Positions 15,273 through 54,449 of a stretch of DNA of 64,000 bases are shown in pieces. A program made the position numbers and the translations under genes. The notes under the pieces are model-generated. The model was not told where the DNA came from. It worked only from the letters and a program-made list of their open reading frames with translations, and made no database searches. Positions within the stretch are counted from its first letter, which is position 1; each line of letters begins with the position of its first letter. The DNA is from Deltaproteobacteria bacterium (GTDB taxonomy: Bacteria > Desulfobacterota > Syntrophia > Syntrophales > Smithellaceae), in the NCBI GenBank assembly GCA_012729055.1, contig JAAYDW010000037.1, forward strand, positions 55,028 to 119,027, in the 5' to 3' direction.

Positions 15273-15348
15273 CCCGACGAACCCGGCCTCGGCCGCAGGA
15301 ACCGAAGCCGGGTTCGTCGGGCAGGAGGACGGAAGACAGCTGTCTTCC
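15273..15348 (-). other. Two strong stem-loops in the 365-nt spacer between the thiolase and CoA-transferase genes
   Basis: The first is a perfect 15-bp stem, CCCGACGAACCCGGC (15273-15287) with GCCGGGTTCGTCGGG (15307-15321). The second is a perfect 18-bp palindrome, GGAAGACAGCTGTCTTCC (15331-15348). Confidence 0.6.
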
Positions 15349-15361
15349 GGGTTTGTAGCCG

Positions 15362-16615
15362 CTACAGCATTTCCAGGGCGACGGCCATGGAGACGCCGCC
15401 GCCGCCGCAAAGCGTGGCGAGCCCCAGCGTGTTGCCGCGCTTCTGCATCGCGTGCAAAAGCGTCACGAGAAGCCGGCAGCCCGTGGCGCCGGTCGGATGG
15501 CCGAGCCCGCAGCCGGAGCCGTTGATATTGGTGATTTCCCGGTTGAGCCCGAGCTCTCTTTCGCAGGCGATGTACTGCGCAGCAAAAGCTTCATTCACTT
15601 CCATGAGCTCAAAATCCGCTATTTTCAAATTCGCGTTTTGCATCAGGTTCCGCACCGCCGGCGCGGGAGAAATTCCCATCACCGAAGGATGGCTGCCGCC
15701 GTAGCCCACGGCTTTGATCCGGGCCAGCGGCTTGAGCCCCAGCGCCCGGGCCTTTTCGGCCGACATGATCACCATGGCGGCGGCGCCGTCATTGAGGCCG
15801 GAGGAATTGCCGGCCGTCACTTTGCCGATCTTCGGAACGAAGGCGGGGGGCAGCGCCGCCAGACGGTCCATCGTCAGTCCCGCAATAAAATGTTCGTCCT
15901 TTTCGAAAACAAGCGGCGGCTTTCCTTTTTTCTGGGGAACGGACACGGGAATAATTTCCGCCCGGAAGGAACCGTCTTTCGTCGCGCGTTCGGCGTTGTT
16001 GTGGCTGCGCAGGGCCACCTCGTCCATCTCTTCCCGCGTAATGGAATACAGTTCGGCAAGAAACTCCGCCGTCTGCCCCATGATGTAAGGCTGGCCGCGG
16101 AACAGGTCGATGAGCGCCCCTTCCTTAAGCGGGCCTTTTTCCGGCCCGGGAAGCAGCCGCGATCCGCAGTAGAGCTGATGCCACACTTCGTCGGCGAAAA
16201 CCTGATCCTGAAGCCTGCTGCCCCACCGGGCCGTGAGGACGCGGTAAACGCCCCCGGACATCTGCTCCACGCCGCCCGCCAGAATGACGTCGGTAAATCC
16301 GGCTTTAATCATCGCCGCGCCGGACACAACCGCTTCCATCGCGGAAACACAGACGCGGTTCATGGTCACGGCCGGAACCGTCACGGGAATGTCCGCCAGC
16401 AGCGCTGCGACGCGGGCGGTATTTTGTTCATCGATATGTTCGTTGCAGCAGCCGAAGCGAACGTCATTGATGATCGCCGGGTCGATTCCGGCGCGGCGGA
16501 TGGCCTCCTTCATGACGACACTGGCCATCGTCGAAGCGTTACTGTCTTTGAGCGACCCGCCGAATTTACCGATGGCGGTCCGGCAGGCCGATACGATTAC
16601 AACATCTTTTTCCAT
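15362..16615 (-). CDS. Thiolase (acetyl-CoA C-acyltransferase family)
   Basis: 417 aa. Motifs: MNRVCVSAMEAV (nucleophile Cys), EVNEAFAAQ, GHPTGATGCR and LCGGGGVS. Confidence 0.9.
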   Translation of the reverse strand: MEKDVVIVSACRTAIGKFGGSLKDSNASTMASVVMKEAIRRAGIDPAIINDVRFGCCNEHIDEQNTARVAALLADIPVTVPAVTMNRVCVSAMEAVVSGAAMIKAGFTDVILAGGVEQMSGGVYRVLTARWGSRLQDQVFADEVWHQLYCGSRLLPGPEKGPLKEGALIDLFRGQPYIMGQTAEFLAELYSITREEMDEVALRSHNNAERATKDGSFRAEIIPVSVPQKKGKPPLVFEKDEHFIAGLTMDRLAALPPAFVPKIGKVTAGNSSGLNDGAAAMVIMSAEKARALGLKPLARIKAVGYGGSHPSVMGISPAPAVRNLMQNANLKIADFELMEVNEAFAAQYIACERELGLNREITNINGSGCGLGHPTGATGCRLLVTLLHAMQKRGNTLGLATLCGGGGVSMAVALEML

Positions 16616-16664
16616 AACTTTTCCTCTTCAATTGATATTCCGTAAACGTCAGCAAAAGATCGCA

Positions 16665-18524
16665 TCAGTAGGAAAAAGCCTCTTCCGTGATCTCCATGGC
16701 CGACGTGTCGCACAGTTTGATGCCTTCGCACCTGGCTTTGACGCTGGTGAGAACATTGGCTGCAAAAAATTTGGCGGAGGCAACCTTGCCGCTGTAAAAG
16801 GCCGCTTCCTTGTCCTCTTGGCACAAAGCGTATTGTTCCCCGGCCGTGCCGGCGCCTTTTGCCTGATAAATCGCATTCCGCTTGTCAACGCAGAGGCGGG
16901 CGGCGCCCAGCAAAAAGTTCCCGATCACGACGTCTCCGAACAGCTCCAGAAATGGCGCCGCGCAAAGATAAGCCGCGGCCGTATTCTCTTTCGAAAGCTT
17001 GATGAGAAAAACGGCCAGATCGAAACAGGCGCGGGCGGCGTCATCAAGAATGCCCGCCGATGGCGCAAGCTCCGCGACTTTTTTCGCCGCGGCCGCATTG
17101 CCGAAGATATCGTTAAAGAGATTCTCGATATTCCGGCCGTTGCGCTGTCTCAGTTTCCGGCCCAGGAGGTCCATGGCCTGAATGCCGTTGGTGCCTTCGT
17201 AAATCGTCGCAATCTTCTCGTCGCGCAGGTACTGCTCGATGGGATATTCGGAGCAGAAACCGTACCCGCCGAAGACATCCATCGCCATGGAGCAAATCTG
17301 GAATCCCTTGTCGGTCGTGTAGGCTTTCACCACCGGAATCAGCAGCTCGACATAACCGTTCCATTTCTCCTTTTCTTCCGGAGTCGGCGCGATCCTGGCG
17401 CTGTCCATACAGTAGGCGACGTAGTAACACATGGCCCGAAGACCCTCGATGTGGGACTTCATCCACATCAGTTTGCGGCGGACGTCGGGATGGTGGATAA
17501 TGGTAACCGGTTTGGCGTTCGGGTCCTTTCCCGCAAGCATGTCGTTGCCCTGCACGCGCTCGCGGGCGTACACGACGGCGCGCTCAAACGAAGCGGACGC
17601 CATCTCGAGGCCCTGCAAGCCCGTATTCAGCCGGGCCTCGTTCATCATCTGGAACATGATCTTCATGCCTTCACGTTCCTTGCCCAGCAGTTCGCCCGTG
17701 CACTGTCCGTTCTCTCCGAAGTTAAGCGTCGCCGTGGCCGATCCCTTGATCCCCATCTTGTGCTCGATGCCGCCGGTCGCCACGTCGTTTGATTCTCCCA
17801 GAGAACCGTCTTCCTTCACACGGACCTTCGGGACAATAAAAATCGAAATTCCTTTCGTTCCCGCCGGGTCGCCTTCGATCCGTGCCAGAACCGGGTGAAC
17901 GATATTCGGGGTTAAATCGTGGTCTCCCGAAGAGATGAAGCATTTGGTGCCGGTGATGAGATACTTGCCGTCAGGCAGGCGTTTGGCCGATGTTTTGAGG
18001 GCGCCGACGTCCGAACCCGCGCCCGGCTCGGTCAGACACATCGTGCCGCCCCATTCGCCGGAGAAGAGTTTATACATGTACTTGTTTTTCTGTTCTTCCG
18101 TGCCGAAAACCTCGAGAAGGTTCGCGGCGCCCAGAGTCAGGCTCGAATACATGTAAAAGGCATAATTGGCGGAGGCGGTGGTTTCCACGATCGCAAACGC
18201 CATGGAGGAAGGCAACCCCTGGCCTCCGACTTCCGGAGAAGCCGCGGGACAGAGCCATCCCGCTTCCGTGTATTTTTTGTAGGGTTCGTGAAAGCATTGC
18301 GGCGCCGTGACCACTCCGTCTTTGAATGTGCAGCCGACCTTGTCTCCCTCGGCCATCGTCGGAGCAATGACGTTAACGGCGATCTTTTCCGCTTCCTTTA
18401 AAACCATCAACAGATCTTCTTTGGAAAAGCCGTTGAACGCGTCCGATTCCAGCAGACGATCGATACCCAATTGTTCAAAGAGAACAAATTGCTGATCTCT
18501 TGTGTTCACCAACAAATTACTCAT
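16665..18524 (-). CDS. Large acyl-CoA dehydrogenase with extended C-terminal domain
   Basis: 619 aa. An ACAD core (CLTEPGAGSDVG, FISSGDHD, IYEGTNGIQAMD) is followed by a helical extension of about 170 aa, as in long FadE/AidB-like ACADs. Confidence 0.9.
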   Translation of the reverse strand: MSNLLVNTRDQQFVLFEQLGIDRLLESDAFNGFSKEDLLMVLKEAEKIAVNVIAPTMAEGDKVGCTFKDGVVTAPQCFHEPYKKYTEAGWLCPAASPEVGGQGLPSSMAFAIVETTASANYAFYMYSSLTLGAANLLEVFGTEEQKNKYMYKLFSGEWGGTMCLTEPGAGSDVGALKTSAKRLPDGKYLITGTKCFISSGDHDLTPNIVHPVLARIEGDPAGTKGISIFIVPKVRVKEDGSLGESNDVATGGIEHKMGIKGSATATLNFGENGQCTGELLGKEREGMKIMFQMMNEARLNTGLQGLEMASASFERAVVYARERVQGNDMLAGKDPNAKPVTIIHHPDVRRKLMWMKSHIEGLRAMCYYVAYCMDSARIAPTPEEKEKWNGYVELLIPVVKAYTTDKGFQICSMAMDVFGGYGFCSEYPIEQYLRDEKIATIYEGTNGIQAMDLLGRKLRQRNGRNIENLFNDIFGNAAAAKKVAELAPSAGILDDAARACFDLAVFLIKLSKENTAAAYLCAAPFLELFGDVVIGNFLLGAARLCVDKRNAIYQAKGAGTAGEQYALCQEDKEAAFYSGKVASAKFFAANVLTSVKARCEGIKLCDTSAMEITEEAFSY

Positions 18525-41521: not shown

Positions 41522-42304
41522 ATGGCTTTTGAGTATGAAAAATTGAAAGTGGAACAAGACGGCATGGTATTGGTAGCGGCCATCAATCACCCCCCGGCAA
41601 ACTCGATGGGACAGGGTGTTTTGAGAGACATTGATGACCTGCTCACCAAATGCGAAAAAGACGACAACGTGCGCGTCATTATCCTCACCGGAAGCGGCAA
41701 CAAACTGTTTTCGGCGGGCGCGGACATTACCGAATTCGCCAGCATTCAGGCGGGCAACGTTCCCAAATACAACGGCAACGAAATTTATTTCCGCATCGAA
41801 AATTATCCCAAAGTCATTATCGCGGCCATGCAGGGCGGCGCCTACGGCGGCGGCCTGGAGCTGGCCTGCTGCTGCCATCTGCGCATCATGGCGGAAGAAG
41901 CCACCCTGGGGCTTCCCGAAGTGAAGCTGGGCCTCAATCCCGGCTGGGGCGGAACGCAGCGCCTGCCGCGTTTTATCGGCAAGACCAAAGCCCTGGAACT
42001 GATGCTGACCGGCGACTTCATGTCCTCCAAGGAAGCCTGTACGCTGGGCCTTCTGAACAAGGTCGTTCCGCAGGCGGAAGTTCTGGAAACCGCCAAAAAA
42101 CTGGCCAAAAAACTGGCCGCCGGCGCTCCGGTCGCCCAGCGCGAAATCATGCGGGCGGTGCGGGAAGGCCTCGAGACCACAACGTTTGAGGGCGTCATGA
42201 AAGTGGAATTCAGCGCCAGCAAAGCGCTGCAGTTCACCGAGGACTTCAAGGAAGGCGCCAAGGCTTTCCTCGAAAAGAGACCTCCGGCTTTCAAGGGCCG
42301 CTAG
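41522..42304 (+). CDS. Enoyl-CoA hydratase/isomerase (crotonase family)
   Basis: 260 aa. Motifs: VIILTGSGNKLFSAGADITEF and IAAMQGGAYGGGLELACCCHLRIMAE. Confidence 0.9.
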   Translation: MAFEYEKLKVEQDGMVLVAAINHPPANSMGQGVLRDIDDLLTKCEKDDNVRVIILTGSGNKLFSAGADITEFASIQAGNVPKYNGNEIYFRIENYPKVIIAAMQGGAYGGGLELACCCHLRIMAEEATLGLPEVKLGLNPGWGGTQRLPRFIGKTKALELMLTGDFMSSKEACTLGLLNKVVPQAEVLETAKKLAKKLAAGAPVAQREIMRAVREGLETTTFEGVMKVEFSASKALQFTEDFKEGAKAFLEKRPPAFKGR

Positions 42305-42332
42305 CGTTCTTTTAGAACGTCAACATTTTGAA

Positions 42333-42375
42333 AAGGCGACGGAGTTTTCAATTCCGCCGCCTTTTTTTCTTTTTC
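42333..42375 (+). terminator. Rho-independent terminator
   Basis: The stem AAGGCGACGGAG...TTCCGCCGCCTT (one mismatch) is followed by a TTTTTCTTTTT run. Confidence 0.75.
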
Positions 42376-42548
42376 CCGCCGCGCGCCGGACACAAAACCC
42401 CGATTGGACAAATCGTGATTGACAGAAGCCCTGTTTTCTGTCTAAGACCCCCTCTACTGCTGCGGAAGGAAAATTCGGGCCGCACTCGACCGGATTAAAA
42501 TCGCGTAGCCGTATTTTCTTCTCTCCGAGAGCTTTGCACAACTCACTT

Positions 42549-43948
42549 GGTTATTTATTTGCCTGATCAATGTTACCCCGAATATCCTTTGAGTTAATCA
42601 GCCTGAAAAATACGATAATGTATTGATAATATTCATTATTTATATTGACAAACGCATTGTTTTCTGGCATGATTCGTTTAAATTAAATCGTTTGGAGGAA
42701 TCATGGGCTTTAAAAATATGAAAACCAATCTCACCTTCGCCGACATCTCCATTTTTAACTCCCTGGAAAAGAACAGGGCCATCCAAAGAATGGAAGATAT
42801 CAATCGGACCGTTGATTGGTCCAGAATCGAAACGCTCTTGCTCAGAAACTACCCCGTCGGTAAAAGCTTTGAGGGCAACAGCGCCTACCCGCCTCTCTTC
42901 CTGATGAAATGCCTGCTGCTTCAGCAATGGTTTAAAATCGACTCCGATCCCGAACTGGAAACCCAGATCAACGACAGGAATTCCTTCAAAAAGTTCCTGG
43001 GCCTTTCTTTTGATGATGTCGCTCCCGATCATTCGACTTTCTCCAGGTTCAGAGGAAGGTTTTCTAAAGATACGATGCGCATGGTCAATCATGAACTTCT
43101 CTCACAATTTACCGCCAAAGGACTGACTATCAATGAAGGCATTGCCATTGATGCCCGCCTGGTGCAATCCGCTTCCCATCCACTTAGCAATCAAAGACTT
43201 CAAGAAGAAAAACTGAAACAGCAGACACCGGAAGGCAAAGTGGATAAGAACGGTAAGGCGCTTAAGTTCTCCCGCGATCTGGAATCGGATTGGACGGTAA
43301 AAAACGATGTCGCTCATTTCGGGCTTAAGGAACATGCTTCTGTGGATACTCGCTATGGTTTTGTTCTCTCCACGGAGATGACACCTGCTTCTCGTCATGA
43401 CAGTCCTTATCTTCCTCTTTGTGTTGCCGGCAGTTGTCATACCCAAGAACCCATTAAAAAGGTGTTTGCGGATAAAGGATATTTTGGAAAACCGAATCGG
43501 GAGTTTCTTGCCTTGAACAAGATCGAAGACGGCATCATGCGCAAGGCGACAACCGGGACAGAACTTACGGAATATGAAACAGAACGCAACAAAGCGATTT
43601 CCAAAGTCCGGTATATTGTTGAACAGTATTTTGGACTTTCCCATTTACACAACAACGCCTTCCGAGCCAGGTTTCCGAGAATGATCAAAAATGCCATAGA
43701 TGTCCTGTTCAGGCAAATGGCGTTTAATCTCGCACGGGCTTCAAAGATACTCAAACCGGCATGACCCAGGGAGGCGTGAGTGTAATGCACGGAAAAACCG
43801 GTAATCCACGATAAATGAGGTTGTATATGGAGGAAAAATGAACTCTTCATAACCCTTTCAACTGATTCGAAGCCGATTTATCGGCCGGAATCGAAATGCG
43901 ATACTCGAAAAAATTTGCTCAAAAAAATCCATCTCTCAAAAATAAGCC
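42549..43948 (+). mobile_element. IS5-family insertion sequence (boundaries approximate)
   Basis: A visibly AT-richer block of about 1.4 kb carries a single DDE transposase gene. The tentative imperfect terminal repeats are GGTTATTTATTTG (left) and the reverse complement of CAAAAATAAGCC (right). No clear target-site duplication was found. Confidence 0.4.
42703..43764 (+). CDS. IS5-family DDE transposase
   Basis: 353 aa. It has an InsH-type N-terminal domain (YPPLFLMKCLLLQQWFKIDSDPELETQINDRNSFKKFLGL...PDHSTFSRFR). The DDE core is visible (IAIDARLV, FADKGYFG, YIVEQYFG). Confidence 0.9.
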   Translation: MGFKNMKTNLTFADISIFNSLEKNRAIQRMEDINRTVDWSRIETLLLRNYPVGKSFEGNSAYPPLFLMKCLLLQQWFKIDSDPELETQINDRNSFKKFLGLSFDDVAPDHSTFSRFRGRFSKDTMRMVNHELLSQFTAKGLTINEGIAIDARLVQSASHPLSNQRLQEEKLKQQTPEGKVDKNGKALKFSRDLESDWTVKNDVAHFGLKEHASVDTRYGFVLSTEMTPASRHDSPYLPLCVAGSCHTQEPIKKVFADKGYFGKPNREFLALNKIEDGIMRKATTGTELTEYETERNKAISKVRYIVEQYFGLSHLHNNAFRARFPRMIKNAIDVLFRQMAFNLARASKILKPA

Positions 43949-44236
43949 TTTGTTCAAACCTCTCTCTCCGCCGCCGGATACAGAGATATCAGTCCCTCCC
44001 TGCAACATGCGGCTGCATCCGGCGCAGCAGCGGTAAGAGCCTCCGGCGGCGCTCCTGAGGCAGACCGTCGCAAAGCTTTCCCCGATCCCCTTCCCGTTGT
44101 TTTGGCCTGCGGGGTCAGTGACTTCTATCGGAAAGACCTCGATGTCATGTTTGGAGTTACGCCGGACAACAGATGTCTTTAAGTCTTCAGCGCCGCAGGA
44201 ATAGAATGACATCGGATATTTGAACGCTCGGATCAC
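43919..44236 (-). CDS. Hypothetical small Cys-rich protein, possibly 3'-truncated by the IS
   Basis: A 105-aa ORF, the only long frame in this gap, with moderately GC3-rich codons. It contains CLRS...YRCCAGC. The last ~10 codons lie in the AT-rich IS-proximal sequence. I do not recognise a family. Confidence 0.25.
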   Translation of the reverse strand: MIRAFKYPMSFYSCGAEDLKTSVVRRNSKHDIEVFPIEVTDPAGQNNGKGIGESFATVCLRSAAGGSYRCCAGCSRMLQGGTDISVSGGGERGLNKGLFLRDGFF

Positions 44237-44242
44237 AGGCCC

Positions 44243-46150
44243 ATGCCAGAACGAATGACAGCGATCAAACCGGATAAAAGGCGTCTTTCAAAAAACGGCT
44301 ACTACCGGCGGCTGAACCTTATGATGGTTTACGCCTGCATGCCCGGCCTGCTGTTCTATGCCGGTTTTTACTTCTATCTCCGACATTATTTTCATGCGTT
44401 TCTGTTTATCTTCATGTTCATCAATGCGTTTGCCGCCGTGCTGGTCGGCGTTCGGTTGCCGTCTTTTCATCTGGCCCTGCGTCATCACCGCATCACCGCG
44501 GGCATCGGTTTCGGACTTTTCGCCGTTAATCTGCTTACCGGTCTCTGGGATCCGAGCATCTACTATATTGTTTTTCCCTGGATCGTTTTGTTTCCGCTGG
44601 CCGCCGTGATCATCCTCGGCCGGTACCTCGGATTGGTTACGGCGGCCGCGTTCAGCAGCATCGCGCTCATTTTTTTTCTTCTCAATGACCTGCCGCCCTT
44701 CGACGCATACAACACCAAGCTGTTCAAATTCAACGCCATTGCCGTGCTGGTCTTCGTGTTGACCATCGCCGCCGCGTACGAAAAGATTCGCATGAAAATT
44801 CACAGTGAACTGGTTTTTTCGGAAAACCAGTACCTGCAGGCCGTCGAACGACAACTTCAAACCAACCGGGAACTCGAGCAGGAAATAGAACGGCGCAGTT
44901 ATTCCGAAAAAGCGCTCGCGGAAAGCGAACTGCACTACCGCGCCCTTTTCGCGGAGTCCGTCGTGCCGCTGTGGGAAGAAGACTGGTCACAGGTTAAAAC
45001 GCTCCTGGACAACCTGCCTGCCTCGGAGCGCGAAAATCTGGCCTGCTGTCTGGAGGAAAATCCCGAACTCATCGAACAATGCGCCTCCTTCATTCAGATT
45101 ACAGCCGTGAACCAGGCTACCCTCAAAATTTGCGAGGCGGATACGCAATCCGTTTTTATGGAAAACTGGGAGCGACTCATTGCCCCGGATCGCTCCGGTT
45201 TTCTCGCCCGGCGAATCGCGTCCGTCTGCCGCACCGGTCGCTACACTGCCCAAGTTGAGGCGGCAACGCTAAACGGAAATCGCATTACGCTGCTCGTGAG
45301 CAGCATGGTCCCGGCAGGATACGAAGCGTCATGGCAGAGGATTTTCAGTTCCGTTTACGACATCACCGAACGGATTGCCATGGAACGGGAAAAAAAGATC
45401 ATGGAAATGAAAATGGAGAATATGAGACAAATTCAGGCCACTGCGAAGCTGGCAGGCGGCATCGCCCACCAGTTCAACAACGCTCTGGCGGTGATTAACG
45501 GCAGCCTGGAGATGCTGTCGATGAACGGGGACGACCATCCGGAATCGCGCAAATTTCTGGCGTCCCTGAAAACGTCGGCGGATCGGATGAGCCGGCTCAC
45601 CGATCAGCTGCTCGCTTACGCCGAAGGGGGGAAATATCAGCCCCGCCATTTTTCCGTCAACGATGTGGTGAACGATGTCGTCCACGCCCAGTCCCTGCTG
45701 ATGGACTCCGATACCGATATCATTCAGGAGCTGGATGACGACGCCGGCATCTCGACAGGCGACATCATACAGATCAAAATGGCCGTCGAGGCGGTCGTTG
45801 CCAACGCGCTGGAGGCCTTGCCGCAGGGAGGCTTGGTGAAAATCTCCACCGGCCGGATGGTGATCGGCCCCGCCTCAGTTCCGGCCGGCCAGACCGTCCG
45901 GCCGGGCGCATACGTGTTTATCCGGGTGAAAGACAGCGGCGTCGGCATGGACCGGGAAACGGTGCAGCGGATTTTTGAACCCTTCTTTACAACAAAGGTG
46001 TATGGCCGCGGCCTCGGCATGGCCGCCGCCTTCGGCATTCTCAAAAATCATGACGGCTGGATTACGGTCGATTCCGGACCGGGAAGGGGAACCAGCGTCG
46101 ATCTCTTTTTCCCCGCCGCCGACCCACCGCGGTCCGTCAAGATCCGGTAA
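44243..46150 (+). CDS. Membrane-bound PAS sensor histidine kinase (orphan)
   Basis: 635 aa. It has about six N-terminal TM helices, a PAS region, an H-box GIAHQFNNALAV, and HATPase motifs DSGVGM and GRGLGMAAAFG. Confidence 0.85.
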   Translation: MPERMTAIKPDKRRLSKNGYYRRLNLMMVYACMPGLLFYAGFYFYLRHYFHAFLFIFMFINAFAAVLVGVRLPSFHLALRHHRITAGIGFGLFAVNLLTGLWDPSIYYIVFPWIVLFPLAAVIILGRYLGLVTAAAFSSIALIFFLLNDLPPFDAYNTKLFKFNAIAVLVFVLTIAAAYEKIRMKIHSELVFSENQYLQAVERQLQTNRELEQEIERRSYSEKALAESELHYRALFAESVVPLWEEDWSQVKTLLDNLPASERENLACCLEENPELIEQCASFIQITAVNQATLKICEADTQSVFMENWERLIAPDRSGFLARRIASVCRTGRYTAQVEAATLNGNRITLLVSSMVPAGYEASWQRIFSSVYDITERIAMEREKKIMEMKMENMRQIQATAKLAGGIAHQFNNALAVINGSLEMLSMNGDDHPESRKFLASLKTSADRMSRLTDQLLAYAEGGKYQPRHFSVNDVVNDVVHAQSLLMDSDTDIIQELDDDAGISTGDIIQIKMAVEAVVANALEALPQGGLVKISTGRMVIGPASVPAGQTVRPGAYVFIRVKDSGVGMDRETVQRIFEPFFTTKVYGRGLGMAAAFGILKNHDGWITVDSGPGRGTSVDLFFPAADPPRSVKIR

Positions 46151-46184
46151 AAAGGGCGGCGTTTTTACGAACGCCGCCCTTTCT
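46150..46184. terminator. Bidirectional terminator between convergent genes
   Basis: A perfect 10-bp stem, GGGCGGCGTT/AACGCCGCCC, with a 6-nt loop, flanked by AAAA and TTTCTTT. Confidence 0.8.
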
Positions 46185-46207
46185 TTACAACCGAACAGTC
46201 GCCTGTA

Positions 46208-47569
46208 TTATTTCCTCAGCTCCGCCGGTGTTCGATAGCGCTTGGGATCCACCCATTTGACCACCAGGGGCTCGTTTTCCTCGCAGGACTCATGCAGATA
46301 GGCAATTTTCCCGTCTTGCTGGAACTGGACGATCAGCTGCAGGAAGTAACCCGGATATGTTTTGTAGGGATTGGCCGCATCCACTCTCATGCGGGAATGA
46401 TAGAAGGGTTTGATTTTCCGCGTTTCATACTTCATCTTGCCCAGCGAGTAGACGGTTTCCACATCTTCCATCGCCTTGATCAATTTCCTGATATCGGCCG
46501 TGCCGCCCGCTTTTTCAATGGCCGCCTTGAAATGGAAAATATCCGCGTAAGCGATGTGCACGTGAATCTGCATGGGGATTTTACGGGACTGCGCCTTCTT
46601 CACCAGAGGAATGGTTCGGGGCGTGAGCGGTATTTCATCCAGATCCGTGAAGGAGCTGATGACACCCAGTCCCTTGCCGCCCGTCATCCGCCAGAAATCC
46701 CGTGTCTGCGCCACGCCGCCGTAAAGGTTGACCTGAATGTCGCGCGCCGCCGAATCCGCCCACTGCTTCGCGAAAGATTCGGTATCGGTGAACCAGGAGC
46801 TGATGAAGAAAATCAGATCGGCGTTGGATTTCTTGATGTCCTGGAGAATCGGCAGGTACATCGTGCCGCGGGGCTTCACCGCCTTGCTGTAAACTACCTG
46901 CAGACCGCATTCCTCGGCCATTTTTTCCCAGGTGGGCAGATTGATGTAGCTGATGCCTCTGCGCCATTCCGTCGTCCAGGCGAGGTCTTCCCAGAGGAAC
47001 GCGATCCGTTTCGTCTTCTGATACTGGGGCATGGTCTTGCAGAAGAAATACTTGGTCTGCGCGTAATGCGCCGGCTCCGGATCCCAGTCGCGGAAGCAGT
47101 GATCGTACTTCGGCGCCTGGTCGATGATGCGCGCCGTCAGTTCCGATCCCATCGGTCCGTTGAAAATCAGAATATGGGGATATTCCTTGGCCAACATGCC
47201 GGATGCCTCCTGAACCGCCAGGCAGATTTCCGACCTGCCTTCAACGGACACAAACTTGGCCTTGTCTTCAATGACCAGCTTCCGCAGGGCTTCCACGGAA
47301 AGCGATGTATCCCCCTTGTTGTCCATGACCACGTACTTGACCGGTCGCCCCATAATGCCGCCCATGGCGTTGATTTCCTCCACCGCCATTTTCTGGATGT
47401 CCATACATGGCCTGGTGCCGGGTGAAGCGACCATGCCGATGTAGCCGATTACGAACGGCTCTCCTTTCGGCTGGGCCGACGAGACGGACGGAACGCTGAC
47501 TGCAACCGCAACCAGCAGTATCAGCGCCGCCACAGCAACCATCTTAACCCTGTTTGCCTGTTTCATCAT
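46208..47569 (-). CDS. ABC transporter substrate-binding protein (Liv/branched-chain-amino-acid-type periplasmic binding fold)
   Basis: 453 aa. It has a signal peptide (MMKQANRVKMVAVAALILLVAVAVSVPSVSSA). The mature N-terminus, PFVIGYIGMVASPG, and the overall pattern resemble type-I periplasmic binding proteins. Confidence 0.85.
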   Translation of the reverse strand: MMKQANRVKMVAVAALILLVAVAVSVPSVSSAQPKGEPFVIGYIGMVASPGTRPCMDIQKMAVEEINAMGGIMGRPVKYVVMDNKGDTSLSVEALRKLVIEDKAKFVSVEGRSEICLAVQEASGMLAKEYPHILIFNGPMGSELTARIIDQAPKYDHCFRDWDPEPAHYAQTKYFFCKTMPQYQKTKRIAFLWEDLAWTTEWRRGISYINLPTWEKMAEECGLQVVYSKAVKPRGTMYLPILQDIKKSNADLIFFISSWFTDTESFAKQWADSAARDIQVNLYGGVAQTRDFWRMTGGKGLGVISSFTDLDEIPLTPRTIPLVKKAQSRKIPMQIHVHIAYADIFHFKAAIEKAGGTADIRKLIKAMEDVETVYSLGKMKYETRKIKPFYHSRMRVDAANPYKTYPGYFLQLIVQFQQDGKIAYLHESCEENEPLVVKWVDPKRYRTPAELRK

Positions 47570-47639
47570 GCTACCCCCTCCTCTTAAAAAAAGCTTATGG
47601 TAATGATCCGATCAAACATCTGCCGACAATTTGATCCCG

Positions 47640-48962
47640 CTAATCGCGTAAATATTTTTCCCGGACATAATCGTTGTCCCGGCCGATCTCCGAGGAGACC
47701 CATTTCACCCGGGGCGGCGATTCGGACATTTTCACGAAATTGGCGCTGATGATGAATTTGCCGAGCTTTTCATCCTCCACTTCCTGGAACGCCTTGCGCA
47801 CCTCCCACTGCTTGTTGGACATCGCCTCTTCCGGCGTCATCAGCTTCATGACGATGGGCACGCCGCCGCCCCGCCACTTGGAGCGCGCGGATTTTCTGCT
47901 GTAATTGAGCGCCATTTTCACCAGTTCGTCCGCCGTGTACAGGACGGTCTTTTCTTCGATAATCTTGTGCAGATGAAGCGCCTGTTCCAGAATATCGGGA
48001 ATGCGGTCGGACGAATAGCGCCAGTCGTCTTCCTGTTCCCACAGACCCAGGATTTTCAAGAGCGCCCGGAAATCATGATCGCGCGGCGCGGCGATCGCCA
48101 CGAAACCGTCCTTGCACTTCCAGTGGCCGTAGGGATAAAGAATGAAATCCAGCACGCCGATGCGCGGACGCGCTTTTTCCCAGGTAAAGCCGATGGTCGC
48201 CGGCATGCCGACCATGGAAGAGTAGGCGTCCATTCCCGCAACGTCCACCATCTGGCCCTCGCCGGTGTTTTGCCGGTGAATCAGCGCAACGGTGGCGCCG
48301 AAGGCCGCGGACAGGCCCGAAATGTACCAGCCCGCCCACATGCCGCCCCGCAGCGGCCAGTTCAAAGGCTCGGGGTCTTCGGGCGGCGCCCCCATCTGGG
48401 CGGGAAGCCCCGATCCGGCCTGCGACGTGATGTCCGTGTCCGGCATCCGGGCCGAGTCTTTGGCTTTGTCCGTATACTGCCCGTAGGCGGAAAGAGCCAC
48501 GTAAACCAGCCCCGGATTCGCGGCGGAAAGCTGCCGGTAACCGATGCCCCAGGCGTCCATCTCGCCGGGCAGAAAACTTTCGATCACCACGGCCGCTTTT
48601 GCCGCCAGCCTGGCGAATGTTTTTCTGTCTTCCTCGCTGTTTTTCACGTCGAGCGTCAGGTAGCGCTTGTTGCGGCCCTCGAACATGAACGGAACGCCCA
48701 CGCCCTGAACCATCACGCCGAAAGGTGTGATCTGGCGCGCCGGATCGCCATCGGCCGGTTCGATCTTGATCACCTCCGCGCCGAATTCAGCCAGCAGGCT
48801 CGCACAGATGATGCCGGCAAAATTGGCCGAACTGACATCCAGCACCAGAACGTCGTCCAGCACTTCCGGCTTGCCTTCCGCGTTCATGATCTCGGCCAGC
48901 ATTTTCCCCCGGTCGCCGGCTTTTCCACCGTGTCTTGTATAAATGGCTTCCTTGGCGCTCAT
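47640..48962 (-). CDS. Family III CoA-transferase, subunit 2 of a probable heteromer
   Basis: 440 aa. The N-terminal sequence LDDVLVLDVSSANFAGIICASLLAEFGAEVIKIEPADGDP carries the family III CoA-transferase signature. Its ATG overlaps the upstream gene's TGA (ATGA at 48959-48962). Confidence 0.9.
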   Translation of the reverse strand: MSAKEAIYTRHGGKAGDRGKMLAEIMNAEGKPEVLDDVLVLDVSSANFAGIICASLLAEFGAEVIKIEPADGDPARQITPFGVMVQGVGVPFMFEGRNKRYLTLDVKNSEEDRKTFARLAAKAAVVIESFLPGEMDAWGIGYRQLSAANPGLVYVALSAYGQYTDKAKDSARMPDTDITSQAGSGLPAQMGAPPEDPEPLNWPLRGGMWAGWYISGLSAAFGATVALIHRQNTGEGQMVDVAGMDAYSSMVGMPATIGFTWEKARPRIGVLDFILYPYGHWKCKDGFVAIAAPRDHDFRALLKILGLWEQEDDWRYSSDRIPDILEQALHLHKIIEEKTVLYTADELVKMALNYSRKSARSKWRGGGVPIVMKLMTPEEAMSNKQWEVRKAFQEVEDEKLGKFIISANFVKMSESPPRVKWVSSEIGRDNDYVREKYLRD

Positions 48963-50314
48963 TTCTTAACCTCTTTTCCGTAATTGTAAATGGGATCCTC
49001 GTTCAGGTTGTAATAGACAGGCGGCTTCAGTCCCGGTCGGTCGTCAAATGTGCCGATGACTTTTTTCCTTTCCAGCTCCTGAATGTCCGCTTCGCACAGA
49101 TCGAGAAATTTCTTGAGCACGAGCCGGTTATGGTACCCCAGCGGTCGGGCCAGCCACTTGGTGCGCGACGGCGTTTTGCTCAGCTGCGCGGACGGGCCGG
49201 CTATCAGGAGCTTGCCGTAAACCGTGTCATTGAAGAGCACGACGCTGCCCCGTTTGCGCCGCCATTCCTCATTGGCGATCATGTAGTCGTCCGCCACTTC
49301 CGCGGCGGGGAAACCTTTCGCGTCGGCCAGTTTGAGGATATCGGCGCAGGATTTCGATTGAATCCAGTCCGTCGCGATCTTCGTCAGGGCTTTGGCGTTC
49401 TCCGGCTTCAGCCGCTCCGGCGTTTCGGCAAAGCGCGGATCGGACGCCAGCTCGGGCATGCCGATCGCATCCGCAAAATGACCGAACTGCTGTGCCGTCG
49501 CGCAGGCGAGCGCGAGGAATTTTTCATCGGCCGTTTTGAAAATCGACGCCGGCATCATCGTGGGATCGGTGTTGCCGGTGCGGCCGATCGCCTCCTTGGT
49601 GACGGAAAAATAGGTGTAGTGATACAGCATGCGCATCAGGCCTTCGGTTTGCGCCATATCGATGTACTGACCCTTGCCGGTTTTTTTCCGGTGGTACAGC
49701 GCCATCAGAACGGCCAGCGACGCGAAATTGCCGGGCACGAAGTCGCCCACGTAATCCGGCAGCTTGTAATAAATGTCGGTGTCCGGATACCCGTTGAGCG
49801 TCAGCACGCCGCTGGCGCCCTGGGCCAGCAGGTCCCAACCCGGAAAGTAACGCATGGGGCCGAACTGGCCGTACGTCGAGCAGCTGAGAAAGATAATGTT
49901 GGGATTGATCTTGGAAATCTTTTCATAGCCGATATTCCAGGCGTCCGCCGTGCCGGGCGCAAAATTTTCAATCACCACGTCGGCCTTTTCCGCCATTTTA
50001 TAGATCAGCTCTTTGGACTCCTTCAGCTGCAGGTTCACCGAAAGGAAGTACTTGTTTTTCGTGATGTTGTGCCAGATGGGGTTGGAGTGCTTCCAATATT
50101 TGCCCCAGTAGGTCGCCGGACGCCAGAGATCGCCGTAGAAGGGCAGTTCCAGCTTGATCACCTCTGCGCCGTAATCGGCCAGGAGCCGCGCGGCAATCGG
50201 CCCGAAGATTACGTGGGAAAAGTCCAGCACCCGGAGGCCCTTGAGCGCTTCCGGCTTCGCGTTTGCCTCGTCGGGATTGAAAAGCTTCGCCGTATAAGCA
50301 AAATAATCTTCCAT
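48959..50314 (-). CDS. Family III CoA-transferase, subunit 1 of a probable heteromer
   Basis: 451 aa. It has LKGLRVLDFSHVIFGPIAARLLADYGAEVIKLELP and GWDLLAQGASG. Confidence 0.9.
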   Translation of the reverse strand: MEDYFAYTAKLFNPDEANAKPEALKGLRVLDFSHVIFGPIAARLLADYGAEVIKLELPFYGDLWRPATYWGKYWKHSNPIWHNITKNKYFLSVNLQLKESKELIYKMAEKADVVIENFAPGTADAWNIGYEKISKINPNIIFLSCSTYGQFGPMRYFPGWDLLAQGASGVLTLNGYPDTDIYYKLPDYVGDFVPGNFASLAVLMALYHRKKTGKGQYIDMAQTEGLMRMLYHYTYFSVTKEAIGRTGNTDPTMMPASIFKTADEKFLALACATAQQFGHFADAIGMPELASDPRFAETPERLKPENAKALTKIATDWIQSKSCADILKLADAKGFPAAEVADDYMIANEEWRRKRGSVVLFNDTVYGKLLIAGPSAQLSKTPSRTKWLARPLGYHNRLVLKKFLDLCEADIQELERKKVIGTFDDRPGLKPPVYYNLNEDPIYNYGKEVKK

Positions 50315-50316
50315 CG

Positions 50317-51021
50317 CTATCTCCCCAAATATGCCTTTTTCACCAGATTGTTCTTCATCAGTTCGGATGATTTTCCCTCGAGAACGATTCTTCCCTCCTG
50401 AATGATATAGCCGCGGTCGGCGAGCTGCAGGGCCCGCAGAGCGTTTTGTTCGGTAAGCAGAATCGTCAGACCCGTCTCCCGGAGCTTGCCCAGGGTTTCG
50501 TACACGTTGTCGACAATGAGCGGCGCCAAACCGATCGACGGTTCATCCACCATCAGCAGATACGGATTGGCCATGAGCCCCCGGCCGATTTTCAGCATCT
50601 GCTGTTCGCCGCCGGAAAGCAGCCGGGCCGACATGTTGGACCGTTCCTTCAGGATCGGAAAGAGGCTGTACACATACTCCAGGGTCTGTTTTCTTTTAGA
50701 CCAGGACGACCTCCGGTAAGCCCCCAGCAGCAGATTTTCCTTGACGGTCATGTAGGGAAAGCTCTTCATGCCCTCGGGAACCTGCACGATGCCCCGGCCC
50801 ACAATGCGGTGCGACGGCAGCCCCTGAATCGCTTCATCGCGGAAGATGATCCGTCCGCTGGTGCCGGTCATCATGCCCTGGATCACATTCAGAATCGTGC
50901 TTTTCCCCGTGCCGTTGGACCCCAGAATGGTCACGATCTCCGATTGACGGACGTTGAAACTGACGCCGTGCAGCGCCGGAATCACGCCGTAGGACGCGCT
51001 CAGATCACTGACTTCAAGCAT
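50317..51021 (-). CDS. ABC transporter ATP-binding protein (LivF-like)
   Basis: The start is at ATG 51021 (MLEVSDLSASYG). It has Walker A GSNGTGKST, signature LSGGEQQML and Walker B LLMVDEPS. It overlaps the upstream ATPase gene by 8 nt. Confidence 0.9.
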   Translation of the reverse strand: MLEVSDLSASYGVIPALHGVSFNVRQSEIVTILGSNGTGKSTILNVIQGMMTGTSGRIIFRDEAIQGLPSHRIVGRGIVQVPEGMKSFPYMTVKENLLLGAYRRSSWSKRKQTLEYVYSLFPILKERSNMSARLLSGGEQQMLKIGRGLMANPYLLMVDEPSIGLAPLIVDNVYETLGKLRETGLTILLTEQNALRALQLADRGYIIQEGRIVLEGKSSELMKNNLVKKAYLGR

Positions 51022-51760
51022 ATTCCCTCCAGCCTCTGCCCAGATACGCTTCGATGACTTCGTCGTTGTTGACCACTTCGTCCGGCGTGCCTTCCGCCAG
51101 TTTGGCGCCGTAGTTGATAGCCACAATCCGATCGGCCGCTTCCATCAGAACCGCCATGACATGCTCGATCCAGAAGACCGTGATGCCGAACTCCTCTTTG
51201 GCTCTGCGGATCATCTTGATGGCGTTTTTAGCCTCGCCGGGATTCAATCCCGCCATGACCTCGTCGATAAAAAGCAACTGTGGCGTCGTGGCCAGGGCCC
51301 TGGCGAGCTCCAGCATGCGCAGCTCGTAAAACGTCAAATCCCGCGCCAGAATATTGCGCTTGCTGAAAAGGCCGACAAACTCGAGATAATGCGTGGCGTC
51401 GTACATCGCGTCCTGAAAGCTCTGATTGATTCTCTTCTTCCCGGAGATGGAGCTTGCCAATACACTGGTGAGCGCGGTCAGTTCCGGAAACGGCCGGGGA
51501 ATCTGATAGGTGCGCGAAAGCCCCATGTGCGCCCGCTGATAGGGCTTCATCCGCGTGATGTCCACGCCGTTCATCTCAACTTTTCCCGAAGTGGCAAGAA
51601 GCGCGCCGGTGAGGCAGTTCACGACCGTGGATTTGCCCGCGCCGTTGGGGCCGATGAACCCCAGGGTCTCGCCCTTGTAAACCTCAAACGAGACGTCATT
51701 GACCGCGACGATGCCTCCAAAACGCTTGACCAGATTGCTTACTTTCAGCAGGGGTTCCAT
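51014..51760 (-). CDS. ABC transporter ATP-binding protein (LivG-like)
   Basis: 248 aa with Walker A GPNGAGKST and Walker B LLFIDEVMAG. Confidence 0.9.
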   Translation of the reverse strand: MEPLLKVSNLVKRFGGIVAVNDVSFEVYKGETLGFIGPNGAGKSTVVNCLTGALLATSGKVEMNGVDITRMKPYQRAHMGLSRTYQIPRPFPELTALTSVLASSISGKKRINQSFQDAMYDATHYLEFVGLFSKRNILARDLTFYELRMLELARALATTPQLLFIDEVMAGLNPGEAKNAIKMIRRAKEEFGITVFWIEHVMAVLMEAADRIVAINYGAKLAEGTPDEVVNNDEVIEAYLGRGWREYA

Positions 51761-51763
51761 GGC

Positions 51764-52804
51764 TTACCTCCGCACATGAATGGTTGGCAGATATTCGCGA
51801 TAACGGCGCTTCCGGTAGAGGCCGAACAAGCCTTCCGGGAGAATAAACAGCAGGATCAGCAGAATGATCGGAAAAACCAGCGGCTGAATCGGCCCCATGA
51901 AACGGATCATCAGCATTTCCAGGAACGCGACGAAATATCCGCCGACCACGCAGCCGAAAATCTGCGCCCGTCCGCCGATCATCAGCACCAGCAGAATCTT
52001 CAGCATGAACGTCAGCGGCAGATAGGTAATGCCGGCAAAGGAGCTGAAATAATGCGCGTAGAACCAGCCGATGACGCCCACCATGGTGGACGCGCCGACA
52101 AACGCAATGATTTTGATCTTGTTGATGTTCACGCCGATGGAATGGGCGACGTCTTCATCGTCGTTGATCGCGGCCATCAGCAGTCCGTAACGGGATTTCA
52201 GCACCTTGTTGATAATCCACAGATACGCAAACATGATGACGGTGGAAAAATAGCCGATGAAGAGAAAGTTGTTTTTGGCGTTGCCGGTGTCGAGCAGGGG
52301 AACGATGCCGAACAGCCCTGTATCTCCCTTGAAAATGTCGGTGTAGATGAAGGTGACTTCCAGGAAAACCAGCGGCAAAAGCAACGTGAGCAGAACATAA
52401 TACAGCCCGCGCGCCATGATGACGAGCGGACTGAACAGCAGCGCCGCGATCATCGACATCAGGATGGCGAAAGGCAGCGTCGTCAGAGGGCCCCATCCGT
52501 ACGCGATGCTGAGCAGGGCCGCCGTGTAGCCGCCCACGCCGATGTAGAACTGCGGCCCGAAATTCATCCGCCCCGTGCCGATGGTCATCAGCGCCAGAGG
52601 CATCGCTATGGCCGCGTAGATATTGGCCGAGATCATGGTATTGATCAGACCGGGGCTGAGGAAGTAGGAGACCGTCGGAAATAAAAACAGGACCACGGCC
52701 CAGATCAGCGTGTTGCGCCAGTAGCGGGGTTCCAGCACCCATTCCCATTTTTTGGTGCCGAACCGGATGACAATGCGGTCTCTCTTTAATTCCAGATCTA
52801 CCAT
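51764..52804 (-). CDS. ABC transporter permease (LivM-like)
   Basis: 346 aa and polytopic. It sits between the LivH-like and LivG-like genes and overlaps the upstream permease gene by 7 nt. Confidence 0.85.
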   Translation of the reverse strand: MVDLELKRDRIVIRFGTKKWEWVLEPRYWRNTLIWAVVLFLFPTVSYFLSPGLINTMISANIYAAIAMPLALMTIGTGRMNFGPQFYIGVGGYTAALLSIAYGWGPLTTLPFAILMSMIAALLFSPLVIMARGLYYVLLTLLLPLVFLEVTFIYTDIFKGDTGLFGIVPLLDTGNAKNNFLFIGYFSTVIMFAYLWIINKVLKSRYGLLMAAINDDEDVAHSIGVNINKIKIIAFVGASTMVGVIGWFYAHYFSSFAGITYLPLTFMLKILLVLMIGGRAQIFGCVVGGYFVAFLEMLMIRFMGPIQPLVFPIILLILLFILPEGLFGLYRKRRYREYLPTIHVRR

Positions 52805-53673
52805 AGCGATTCACTCCTTGCTAAACCCTGGGGTCGTATAACCAGTATGACCATGACAAGAATCAGCGCCGACAAATTCATGAAACGCGGCTCTCCAAGG
52901 ACGAAACTCACAAAGGCATGGGCAAAGCCGATCAGAAAGCTGGCGATGATCGTGCCTTTGATATTGCCCAGTCCGCCCAGAACCGCGACAAGAATCGCGG
53001 TGACCATGTACATCCACCCCATCCCCGGCTCGACGGACCAGACCGGCGCGACGATGAGCATCCCGATGATCACCGGCAAAAGAACAATCATCATCGTGAA
53101 CATGTAAAGGGTTTCAACGTTGATGCCGACAATTTTCGACGAGTAGATGTCCTGCGACAGGGCGCGAATGGCCATGCCGGTTTTGGTTTTGAGAAAAAAC
53201 AGGACGAAGACGGCGGTCATCGCCAGAGCGATGAAGGAGCCGATCATGAGCTGTTTGGGCACCACGGTCTCGCCGAATTGATAGATGCCTCCCGCGAGCG
53301 TGGTCTCCAGGTAAACGCCCGCCTGGATCGGATAAAAGTAATTCGCCGCCTGCTCGACAATCAGCGCCACCAGCAAGAGCGCCGTGAGCAAAACGTCCTC
53401 GGTGGCGAGGTATTTTTTGATCATGCCTTTATAGATGAGGATGGCCACGATAAACTGGATGAGGATCATGCCCAGGATGGAGGGAATGAGCGGCCATTCC
53501 AGCGTCATCATGAGCATCCAGGTACCGTAAACCGTCAGCGGGAAAATGTAGGCATACCCGAGATGAAAAATTCTCAGCACGCCGCAGATCAGGGAAAACC
53601 CCAAGGCAATGAGAAGGTAAATGGACCCCATCACAAAAGTAAACACGACCACATTCTGAATATACGTCCACAT
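52798..53673 (-). CDS. ABC transporter permease (LivH-like)
   Basis: 291 aa and polytopic. It is the first gene of the operon. Confidence 0.85.
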   Translation of the reverse strand: MWTYIQNVVVFTFVMGSIYLLIALGFSLICGVLRIFHLGYAYIFPLTVYGTWMLMMTLEWPLIPSILGMILIQFIVAILIYKGMIKKYLATEDVLLTALLLVALIVEQAANYFYPIQAGVYLETTLAGGIYQFGETVVPKQLMIGSFIALAMTAVFVLFFLKTKTGMAIRALSQDIYSSKIVGINVETLYMFTMMIVLLPVIIGMLIVAPVWSVEPGMGWMYMVTAILVAVLGGLGNIKGTIIASFLIGFAHAFVSFVLGEPRFMNLSALILVMVILVIRPQGLARSESLW

Positions 53674-53727
53674 GCTGATCCACCCTCATTGAAGAAAATT
53701 TATTTTCAAAACAACGATTATGCAATC

Positions 53728-53743
53728 TGCAAGGTTTCCGCCG
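53728..53743 (-). promoter_or_regulatory. Weak sigma-54-like promoter candidate for the ABC/CoA-transferase operon
   Basis: The minus strand reads CGGCGG-AAACC-TTGCAG. The GG-N10-GC spacing is correct and the -12 TTGCA is good, but the -24 element is poor. It lies about 55 nt upstream of ATG 53673. Confidence 0.25.
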
Positions 53744-53778
53744 GGAACGGGAAACCCCTTCTCGCGCTTTAATGAGCG

Positions 53779-53797
53779 CTGGATACCGGGTATCCAG
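53779..53797. promoter_or_regulatory. Perfect 19-bp palindrome, candidate operator
   Basis: CTGGATACC-G-GGTATCCAG lies about 105-125 nt upstream of the operon start codon. Confidence 0.35.
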
Positions 53798-54221
53798 CCT
53801 GCCTGGTCCGGGCACAAAAGAACAGGATGCCGGAAAACAGCCGGGCCGCCTGTCGTCGGGAAAAACGCAAAAACGAAGGGTCGTATTTATTGAAAAGTGG
53901 AATTTGTCTGCGATTCAGAAAAAAACTGTCGGTCAGTGCCAGGTCATTGTTGGAAATGGATAAAAGGATGTTTTCATCGGAGATCGGTTGAAGCGAAAAT
54001 GTTGCAGCGAACACCATGCCTCCAAAGCTTCCAGATGGTCAATCTGTTCCATCCGCAGGAAAACCGTGTGTAACAATATCCAGCATCCGGCTCCCGACGA
54101 TCGTGTGCTTTTGAGTTGCTTTGTGCTTCACCTGTAAATCCTCCATCGCGGTGAAACGATGCAAGGTTAGCATGTTTATTAGGTCAGGACGATTATTTTG
54201 TCAACGAAAAAAAATTATTAT

Positions 54222-54449
54222 TTAAAGCAGAGCGATATCAAAGTAATCCAGCCGATCCGTCAGGACGCCTGCCGCCCGGTCGCGATCCGCGCCGTCGATG
54301 CGCAGGCAAACGCCGCAGTCCGAACTCAAATGCCGGGGCACCGGGATGAGCTTGCACTTTACACCGGCGGCTTTGAGGAGTTTTTCGGCGTGCAGCGCGT
54401 GGCTGACGGATTCAAAGAGAATGACGGCGGGGGTTTCGGAAGCGGCCAT
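54222..54449 (-). CDS. DUF3343-type putative Se/S carrier protein
   Basis: 75 aa. AVILFESVSHALHAEKLLKAAGVKCKLIPVPRHLSSDCGVCLRI matches my recollection of the DUF3343 pattern (a small domain with a conserved CG). Confidence 0.7.
   Translation of the reverse strand: MAASETPAVILFESVSHALHAEKLLKAAGVKCKLIPVPRHLSSDCGVCLRIDGADRDRAAGVLTDRLDYFDIALL

Follow-up and report, generated by a model that had tools for sequence, protein, structure and literature searches.

The DNA analysed here is a stretch of 64,000 nucleotides (nt; hereafter the window) of contig JAAYDW010000037.1 in assembly GCA_012729055.1, a genome assembly of 3.36 Mb in 113 contigs. It stems from a syntrophic sludge bacterium of the Smithellaceae, and close homologues are labelled Smithella or Smithellaceae. 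At positions 46208-53673, seven consecutive open reading frames (ORFs) on the minus strand form an operon with the order perm1-perm2-atpG-atpF-ctA-ctB-sbp, in which the genes of a Liv-type ATP-binding cassette (ABC) importer stand together with two genes for family III coenzyme A (CoA) transferases. All seven ORFs, with the families that a preliminary description of this DNA had assigned to them, were recovered at their coordinates with Pfam and NCBIfam. In gene order they are:

52798..53673, minus strand: perm1, LivH/UrtB-type permease, 291 amino acids (PF02653, E 1.5e-26; below all NCBIfam equivalog cut-offs)
Ahead of the perm1 ATG, minus strand: ribosome-binding site of perm1, GAGGGTGG (sequence reading)
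51764..52804, minus strand: perm2, LivM/UrtC-type permease, 346 amino acids (PF02653, E 2e-28)
51014..51760, minus strand: atpG, LivG-type ABC ATPase, 248 amino acids (ABC_tran and BCA_ABC_TP_C; LivG model 211 bits against a cut-off of 362)
50317..51021, minus strand: atpF, LivF-type ABC ATPase, 234 amino acids (ABC_tran, E 1.4e-27; LivF model 249 bits against a cut-off of 441)
48959..50314, minus strand: ctA (P0001), family III CoA-transferase, predicted catalytic subunit, 451 amino acids (PF02515, E 7.5e-93)
47640..48962, minus strand: ctB (P0002), predicted non-catalytic partner subunit, 440 amino acids (PF02515, E 1.8e-80)
46208..47569, minus strand: sbp (P0003), secreted solute-binding protein of the LivJ fold, 453 amino acids (Peripla_BP_6, E 9.5e-28)

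The genes are tightly packed. Read in the sequence, perm1 and perm2 overlap by 7 nt (52798-52804), perm2 and atpG are separated by 3 nt, atpG and atpF overlap by 8 nt, atpF and ctA are 2 nt apart, ctA and ctB share the ATGA at 48959-48962, and 70 nt lie between ctB and sbp. This agrees with the junctions given previously, namely overlaps or gaps of 2-3 nt throughout and a gap of 70 nt before sbp. The start of atpF was corrected. Its longest ORF opens with a TTG at 51126; the homology-supported start is the ATG at 51021, because it is at residue 35-36 of the long ORF that the alignment to the LivF profile begins. The long antisense ORFs across the operon gave no Pfam match. The stretch is present in 20 public sequencing runs from 14 studies, six of which runs are on record as RNA, and the contigs of four metatranscriptome runs were placed on it. 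Contigs from these RNA libraries that are 100% identical to the window and come from three studies cover 46180-54158 and bridge all six junctions, which answers the question of co-transcription as far as such contigs can, since they show presence and bridging rather than a single transcript, its strand or its level. Coverage of the flanks was zero or patchy in the placed runs, and uncovered parts were not used as evidence.

The arrangement is widespread. A scan with one genome per species yielded 162 relatives of ctA, of which the best 80 were examined by tblastn with all seven proteins. The gene order perm1-perm2-atpG-atpF-ctA-ctB recurs in nearly all of these 80 loci with a long enough contig, and in the relatives one to three binding-protein genes usually follow ctB. 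The 4-nt overlap between ctA and ctB is retained in most loci, and ctA is likewise coupled translationally to the preceding ATPase gene in most of them. The loci belong to Smithellaceae, other Syntrophales, Desulfomonilia, Desulfobacterales and, in six cases, Dehalococcoidia, with identities of about 60-95%, so that the cassette has hosts in two phyla (Thermodesulfobacteriota and the Dehalococcoidia lineages). In the six Dehalococcoidia loci the identity is 57-66% and the binding-protein gene is inverted. A survey of gene neighbourhoods had been suggested as a way to learn whether the arrangement is peculiar to this genome; it is not, being found in at least 80 species genomes of two phyla and, in addition, as a paralogous cassette. 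As a separate observation, one locus of the Dehalococcoidales (L075) holds an extra tandem family III pair at 14633-17084, 27-31% identical to ctA, beside the cassette, followed by genes for an acyl-CoA dehydrogenase and an enoyl-CoA hydratase.

Among 201 genomes of the order, the relatives fall into three tiers. True orthologues (tier 1, at least 65% identity) occur in 16 of the 201 genomes. Tier 2 (48-56% identity) is the paralogous cassette (L081, that is G135:C1, together with L082 and L087), which has the same seven genes with sbp in first place; its proteins are 45-57% identical to those described here, sbp only 33%. It is found in the same genus and order, sometimes beside the orthologous cassette within one genome, and was not found in the genome studied here. 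Since its content is the same, the whole unit duplicates and diverges together. Tier 3 (for example L083-L086) consists of pairs related to ctA (A subunits) and ctB (B subunits) at 35-39% identity which have no transporter and are present in about 65 genomes, about a third of the sampled Syntrophales. These pairs adjoin genes for an AMP-forming ligase, a thiolase and NMO-like proteins.

Both ctA and ctB are members of family III, with 312 bits and 271 bits, respectively, against the CoA_transf_3 cut-off of 23.3. In NCBIfam, the two are about equally near to the mesaconate, glutarate, oxalate and formyl-CoA transferases, at around a quarter of the required score. Both proteins are longer than the Pfam domain of 366 positions: ctA by about 23 residues at its N-terminus and about 55 at its C-terminus, ctB by about 34 residues at its N-terminus and by internal insertions. 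The unusual length to which the preliminary description had drawn attention is therefore real with respect to the Pfam domain, but it is not specific to the transporter-linked copies. The conserved C-terminal tail of ctA was considered as a dock for the transporter and rejected, because the tier-3 pairs, which have no transporter, carry it too, as do single genes of family III.

The decisive difference between the two proteins lies at the nucleophile position. The ctA protein has the canonical HVIFGP motif, and its residue D191, within PDYVGDFVPG, aligns with D169 of CaiB and D212 of SUGCT and is kept in 72 of 72 orthologues. Asp212 of SUGCT is catalytic, as the D212A variant is inactive (PMC10871334). 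The SUGCT numbering has an offset of 33, fixed by Trp91 and Tyr102, by which Asp212 is index 179, the Asp of the AMTD motif in 9br6. The wild type of CaiB (1xk6) and the D169A entry (1xvu) differ at the homologous position. In ctB, W212 occupies the nucleophile position in alignments with CaiB, 10uh and 4ed9. Of 68 orthologues, 65 have a Trp at this position and three were not matched by the search pattern; ctB has the family fold without the catalytic Asp. All B-type subunits are without the nucleophile Asp, with Gly in its place in tier 2 and Trp in tier 3. The N-terminal motif of ctB is degenerate as well (SxANFxGI in place of HVIFGP), and the GAEVIKIE, GDPxR and RNK motifs are retained. 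We also considered the Asp of the G-W/Y-D motif (D161 in ctA, D177 in ctB) as the nucleophile, in which case both sites would be live; this assignment was ruled out by the mapping of SUGCT Asp212 and by the comparison of wild-type CaiB with D169A. Because ctB has no Asp nucleophile, a ctB homodimer would have no active site, and ctB is not expected to act as an independent enzyme.

On these sequence grounds, ctA and ctB are best read as one heterodimeric enzyme with a single working active site. Their genes are distinct and adjacent, with the ATGA overlap and an RNA-library contig across the junction, and both are present in every long-enough locus. In a maximum-likelihood tree, the A subunits (support 97/92) and the B subunits (support 100/98) form sister clades which share one branching order: tier 3, tier 2 and then tier 1 with the Dehalococcoidia as sister to the rest. 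The A and B clades sit together and apart from the four single family III genes of this genome; the tree is rooted at its midpoint, and the joins of tier 3 bring long branches together. As far as the sequences tell, this is one old duplication followed by co-diversification of the A and B subunits. Furthermore, metagenomic proteins of 908-910 amino acids (P0124 and P0125) are natural fusions in which an A-type half is followed by a B-type half, as in the gene order. They share 63% and 60% identity with an unfused tier-3 pair, and their B half again has a Trp at the nucleophile position. These fusions are just 34-37% identical to ctA and ctB and belong to the transporter-less lineage. Together with P0127, metagenomic proteins of this kind span 822-910 amino acids, and what they fuse is exactly the transporter-less A/B pair.

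A structure model of the ctA-ctB complex reached an interaction prediction score from aligned errors (ipSAE) of 0.96, with 0.00 for the best-scoring of three controls; of 80 solved complexes 58 attain this mark, and of 110 mismatched pairs 2 do. At least 93% of the contacts are shared among the three runs, and the predicted local distance difference test (pLDDT) score of the partners is at least 86. The modelled interface has about 600 contacts, would involve both N-terminal extensions and is consistent with the interlocked dimer of family III. Since interlocked family III dimers have already been solved, this result shows likeness rather than binding, and the high score may merely reflect similarity to those structures. 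The proposal of a heteromeric enzyme has been strengthened by W212 of ctB, by the co-diversified subunits and by the natural A-B fusion, and a physical heterodimer of ctA and ctB is, in our opinion, very probable.

The transporter has the complete part set of the HAAT/LivHMGF-J type (TC 3.A.1.4), namely two BPD_transp_2 permeases, a LivG-type ATPase with a C-terminal BCA motif, a LivF-type ATPase and a Peripla_BP_6 protein with signal peptide. The parts are nearest to the Liv and Urt models of NCBIfam, yet far under every equivalog cut-off, and equivalence to the branched-chain amino acid or urea systems of E. coli was not found (LivF 249 of 441 bits, LivJ-type 35 of 477). The binding protein carries a Sec-type signal peptide which, read in the sequence, ends with VSSA/QP. 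Its structure model has a pLDDT of 88.6. The nearest solved structures, from sequence search and from Foldseek on the model, have the LivJ fold and are just 13-20% identical; their ligands are Leu, urea, gamma-aminobutyrate (GABA), pyroglutamate and 4-hydroxybenzoate or other hydroxybenzoates. Assigning a ligand from these matches was therefore rejected, as their identity is low and their ligands are unrelated to one another. For Rhodopseudomonas palustris, published screening showed that the ligands of binding proteins of the Liv type (COG0683) are mostly aromatic, fatty or dicarboxylic acids and not Leu, Ile or Val (PMC3223731). Because of this precedent, and because of the neighbours of beta-oxidation type described below, a carboxylic acid is the likely substrate of the system.

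Taken together, we propose that the operon is a self-contained import-and-activate cassette for an organic acid, the CoA thioester being made by a heterodimeric transferase; we put the probability of this reading at roughly two in three. The secreted binding protein would capture a solute in the periplasm, most likely a carboxylic acid and not a branched-chain amino acid, and the LivHMGF-type importer would take it into the cell at the cost of ATP. The ctAB enzyme could then turn the solute into its CoA thioester with CoA from a thioester that is abundant in the cell (acetyl-CoA or succinyl-CoA), without an AMP-forming ligase. In this enzyme, ctA would supply the nucleophile Asp191, and ctB, with Trp212, would be a non-catalytic but structurally required partner in the interlocked dimer. 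The product would probably enter a metabolism of the beta-oxidation type. The known two-subunit relatives give a weak hint, by analogy, that the substrate is a dicarboxylate and the donor succinyl-CoA. That ctAB acts on the very solute that is imported appears reasonably likely; coupling of uptake to CoA activation had already been proposed in the preliminary description, and the conserved operon structure, from which we infer it, speaks in its favor.

Several points weigh against this proposal. The related A/B pair without transporter in about 65 Syntrophales genomes indicates that the enzyme can in principle do without the importer. Import by an ABC system costs ATP, which weakens the argument of energy saving. 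The RNA-library contigs can neither prove a single transcript nor exclude contaminating DNA, and the complex model does not separate a heterodimer from homodimers. Clustering of all flanking ORFs of the 80 loci gave no consistently linked gene. Finally, sequence search and Foldseek gave no close liganded relative of sbp, and since the ligands of its nearest structures range over Leu, urea, GABA and 4-hydroxybenzoate, an amino acid has to be reckoned with as ligand.

The last point leads to the strongest of the alternatives, in which the imported solute is an amino acid, in keeping with the Liv-type name of the importer, and the transferase comes in one or more steps further on, with a derived acid such as a 2-hydroxy acid as its substrate, so that import would not be followed directly by activation. 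The Leu-, GABA- and pyroglutamate-binding proteins among the solved relatives of sbp fit this scenario, and FldA and HadA of clostridia are family III enzymes that act on amino-acid-derived 2-hydroxy acids. However, no gene for an aminotransferase, a 2-hydroxyacid dehydrogenase or a 2-hydroxyacyl-CoA dehydratase is conserved beside the cassette, and all NCBIfam Liv equivalog scores are far under the cut-off. The aminotransferase gene found ahead of the cassette in six loci is part of a cobalamin-type cluster with a TonB receptor, DUF6504 and CbiB, a context that is probably adjacency by descent. We regard this alternative as unlikely. As a side observation, in the loci L049, L059, L061, L064 and L068 the genes upstream of perm1 encode, on the same strand, a TonB-dependent receptor, DUF6504, CbiB and a class I/II aminotransferase (probably CobD-type), and in the same subgroup of the Thermodesulfobacteriota an amine-oxidase-family flavoprotein and an FMN reductase are encoded downstream.

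It is also conceivable that ctA and ctB are passengers for general CoA recycling, e.g. of the succinyl-CoA:acetate type, and merely co-transcribed with an unrelated importer, as the many A/B pairs without transporters in Syntrophales might suggest. But the unit of seven genes has been maintained in two phyla and also in the diverged paralogous cassette, and the ATPase gene is translationally coupled to ctA in most loci, which makes a passenger role quite improbable. Intramolecular CoA-transferases or racemases such as Mct, ThnP and AMACR belong to the same fold family (PMC11659651), and AMACR is among the PDB matches; an activity of this kind would need a CoA-ester substrate, which an ABC importer cannot supply, and the conserved unit has no ligase, so that we give it very little weight. 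Least credible is that ctA and ctB are independent homodimeric CoA-transferases of differing specificities, which could be argued from the homodimeric nature of most characterised family III enzymes (such as SUGCT, PMC10871334) and from the identity of only 30% between ctA and ctB, but which is not tenable given the missing nucleophile Asp in B-type subunits and is further opposed by the mirrored phylogeny, the natural A-B fusion and the conserved 4-nt overlap.

Going beyond the import-and-activate proposal, one can speculate that ctAB touches the cytoplasmic face of the importer and thioesterifies the solute as it emerges. This would be a vectorial trapping by CoA, a CoA-transferase analogue of group translocation, in which the inactive ctB site, with its retained CoA-binding motifs, might dock or sense acyl-CoA and thereby gate uptake. 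The support for a contact between ctAB and the transporter is limited to the operon wiring and the coupling from the ATPase gene into ctA, and we consider this extension improbable.

At its two ends the operon is bordered by the following features:

53674..54241, minus strand: promoter-like site and long 5' leader (RNA-library contig ends, sequence reading)
46151..46183, no strand assigned: GC-rich hairpin and T-run, likely a bidirectional terminator, AGGGCGGCG ... CGCCGCCCT followed by TTTTT (sequence reading)

The region of 548 nt upstream of the operon looks like a long 5' leader and not like a silent spacer, because RNA-library contigs of two studies reach into it. These contigs run out of the operon and stop at 54158 and 54151 with no loose end, some 480 nt ahead of the first start codon, which is a weak hint of a 5' end. 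They stop just downstream of promoter-like hexamers, namely a sigma-70-like site, TTGATA-16-AATAAT, at 54241-54214 and the pair TTGACA-17-TAATAA at 54204-54176. About 70-100 nt before the start codon (approximately 53727-53757), the leader contains a hairpin, GGTTTCCCG...CGGAAACC, with a T-run. This hairpin is kept only among Smithellaceae, with apparent compensatory changes, and could be an attenuator; for 15 leaders from Smithellaceae, RNAalifold found no more than 4 pairs, at -1.1 kcal/mol. A perfect 20-bp palindrome lies at 53779-53798. Three further candidates in the leader were rejected: a riboswitch, for which Rfam gave no match at E values up to 1 and RNAalifold support was weak; the sigma-54-like site noticed in the preliminary description, whose TTGCA half is missing in aligned relatives; and an ORF of 82 amino acids, which has no Pfam match and only 32-51% partial identity in relatives and is probably not a gene.

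At the other end, the hairpin at 46151-46183 separates the convergent sbp and histidine-kinase genes, and RNA-library contigs of four runs end beside it, at 46180-46228. In the four RNA-library runs, the depth of the contig over sbp exceeds that of the contigs over the remaining six genes by a factor of 3-6. An internal promoter in the 70-nt gap could be the cause, or a more stable 3' segment shielded by the terminator hairpin, although contig depth is a poor measure.

The window is rich in genes of acyl-CoA metabolism, with five thiolases, acyl-CoA dehydrogenases, an enoyl-CoA hydratase, an AbfD-like dehydratase and family I CoA-transferase-like genes. A third, single family III gene (432 amino acids, 13698-14996, minus strand) lies between thiolase and acyl-CoA dehydrogenase genes; it groups with the single copy on contig C69 of the same genome, outside the A and B clades. 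Upstream of the operon and on the same strand are a sulfur-trafficking-type module and then an AMP-forming ligase. Downstream, in the region 41522-46150, are a histidine kinase (44243-46150), an IS5-type transposase (42703-43764) and an enoyl-CoA hydratase. In one relative (L002) an enoyl-CoA hydratase gene directly follows the binding-protein gene, whereas the kinase and the transposase intervene here; a histidine kinase occupies the same place in eight relatives. Among the 80 loci, the recurrent flanking genes are enoyl-CoA hydratase (18), NMO-like (9), AMP ligase (8), acyl-CoA dehydrogenase (5), short-chain dehydrogenase/reductase (SDR; 5) and AbfD-like (4), and thiolase and two-component regulators also recur. 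Deducing the ligand from neighbouring genes was rejected, as the flanking ORFs of the 80 loci include no consistent partner.

All parts of the cassette are from known families, and there is precedent both for heteromeric enzymes of family III and for carboxylate importers of the Liv type. In a full-text literature search, no paper describing the cassette was found. It is widespread: no fewer than 80 species genomes from two phyla have it, there are a paralogous and a transporter-less version, and it occurs in RNA libraries of three studies. Syntrophs and other strict anaerobes live on tiny energy margins, and the uptake and activation of acids therefore set what they degrade in digesters, peat and sediments. 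If the proposal is true, ctB is a clear example of a pseudo-enzyme subunit among family III CoA-transferases, and the cassette could supply an ATP-independent uptake-plus-activation module for pathway engineering.

Among known systems, the homodimeric enzymes SUGCT (9br6), CaiB (1xk6), Frc/YfdW and YfdE share with ctAB the fold, the Asp nucleophile (in ctA) and, as far as the model goes, the architecture of interlocked dimers. They have two identical subunits and two active sites, whereas in ctAB one subunit has lost the nucleophile. The fused family III proteins of about 800-910 amino acids resemble ctA-ctB in having A and B in gene order, but are one polypeptide. DddD-type proteins are likewise fused two-domain proteins of family III. 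Two-subunit family III CoA-transferases are known for dicarboxylic acids with succinyl-CoA as donor, and we liken ctAB to these by description only. To our knowledge, none of them is embedded with an ABC importer.

A close enzymatic parallel is the succinyl-CoA:(R)-benzylsuccinate CoA-transferase BbsEF, in which two different family III subunits from adjacent genes activate an acid without ATP (PMC10818641). Like BbsEF (PDB 9fn0/9fol/9fun), ctA and ctB are two different family III subunits from adjacent genes, and the relatives of BbsEF in fumarate-addition pathways, e.g. LssDE (PMC12583861), are two-subunit enzymes as well. The ctA protein matches chain B of 9fn0 better and the ctB profile matches chain A better, and chain A has a Tyr where ctB has a Trp at the nucleophile position, albeit in a weak alignment (E 0.07). 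However, ctA scores 126 bits to 9fn0_B against 162 to SUGCT, and the ctB profile 91 bits to 9fn0_A against 123 to 4ed9. Due to these higher scores against homodimeric enzymes (SUGCT, 4ed9, 10uh), ctA and ctB are not orthologous to BbsE and BbsF, and of the comparison with BbsEF drawn previously the same kind of probable heteromer stands and orthology does not. BbsEF lies in a beta-oxidation operon for an internally made metabolite, whereas ctAB lies in a transporter operon. A further parallel is provided by the HAAT importers of R. palustris, in which a Liv-type binding protein and ABC importer are paired with CoA activation and beta-oxidation of organic acids (PMC3223731). In contrast to the cassette described here, R. 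palustris activates these acids via ATP-dependent ligases such as PimA, encoded in neighbouring operons (PMC3223731), while here the CoA-transferase pair sits inside the transporter operon itself.

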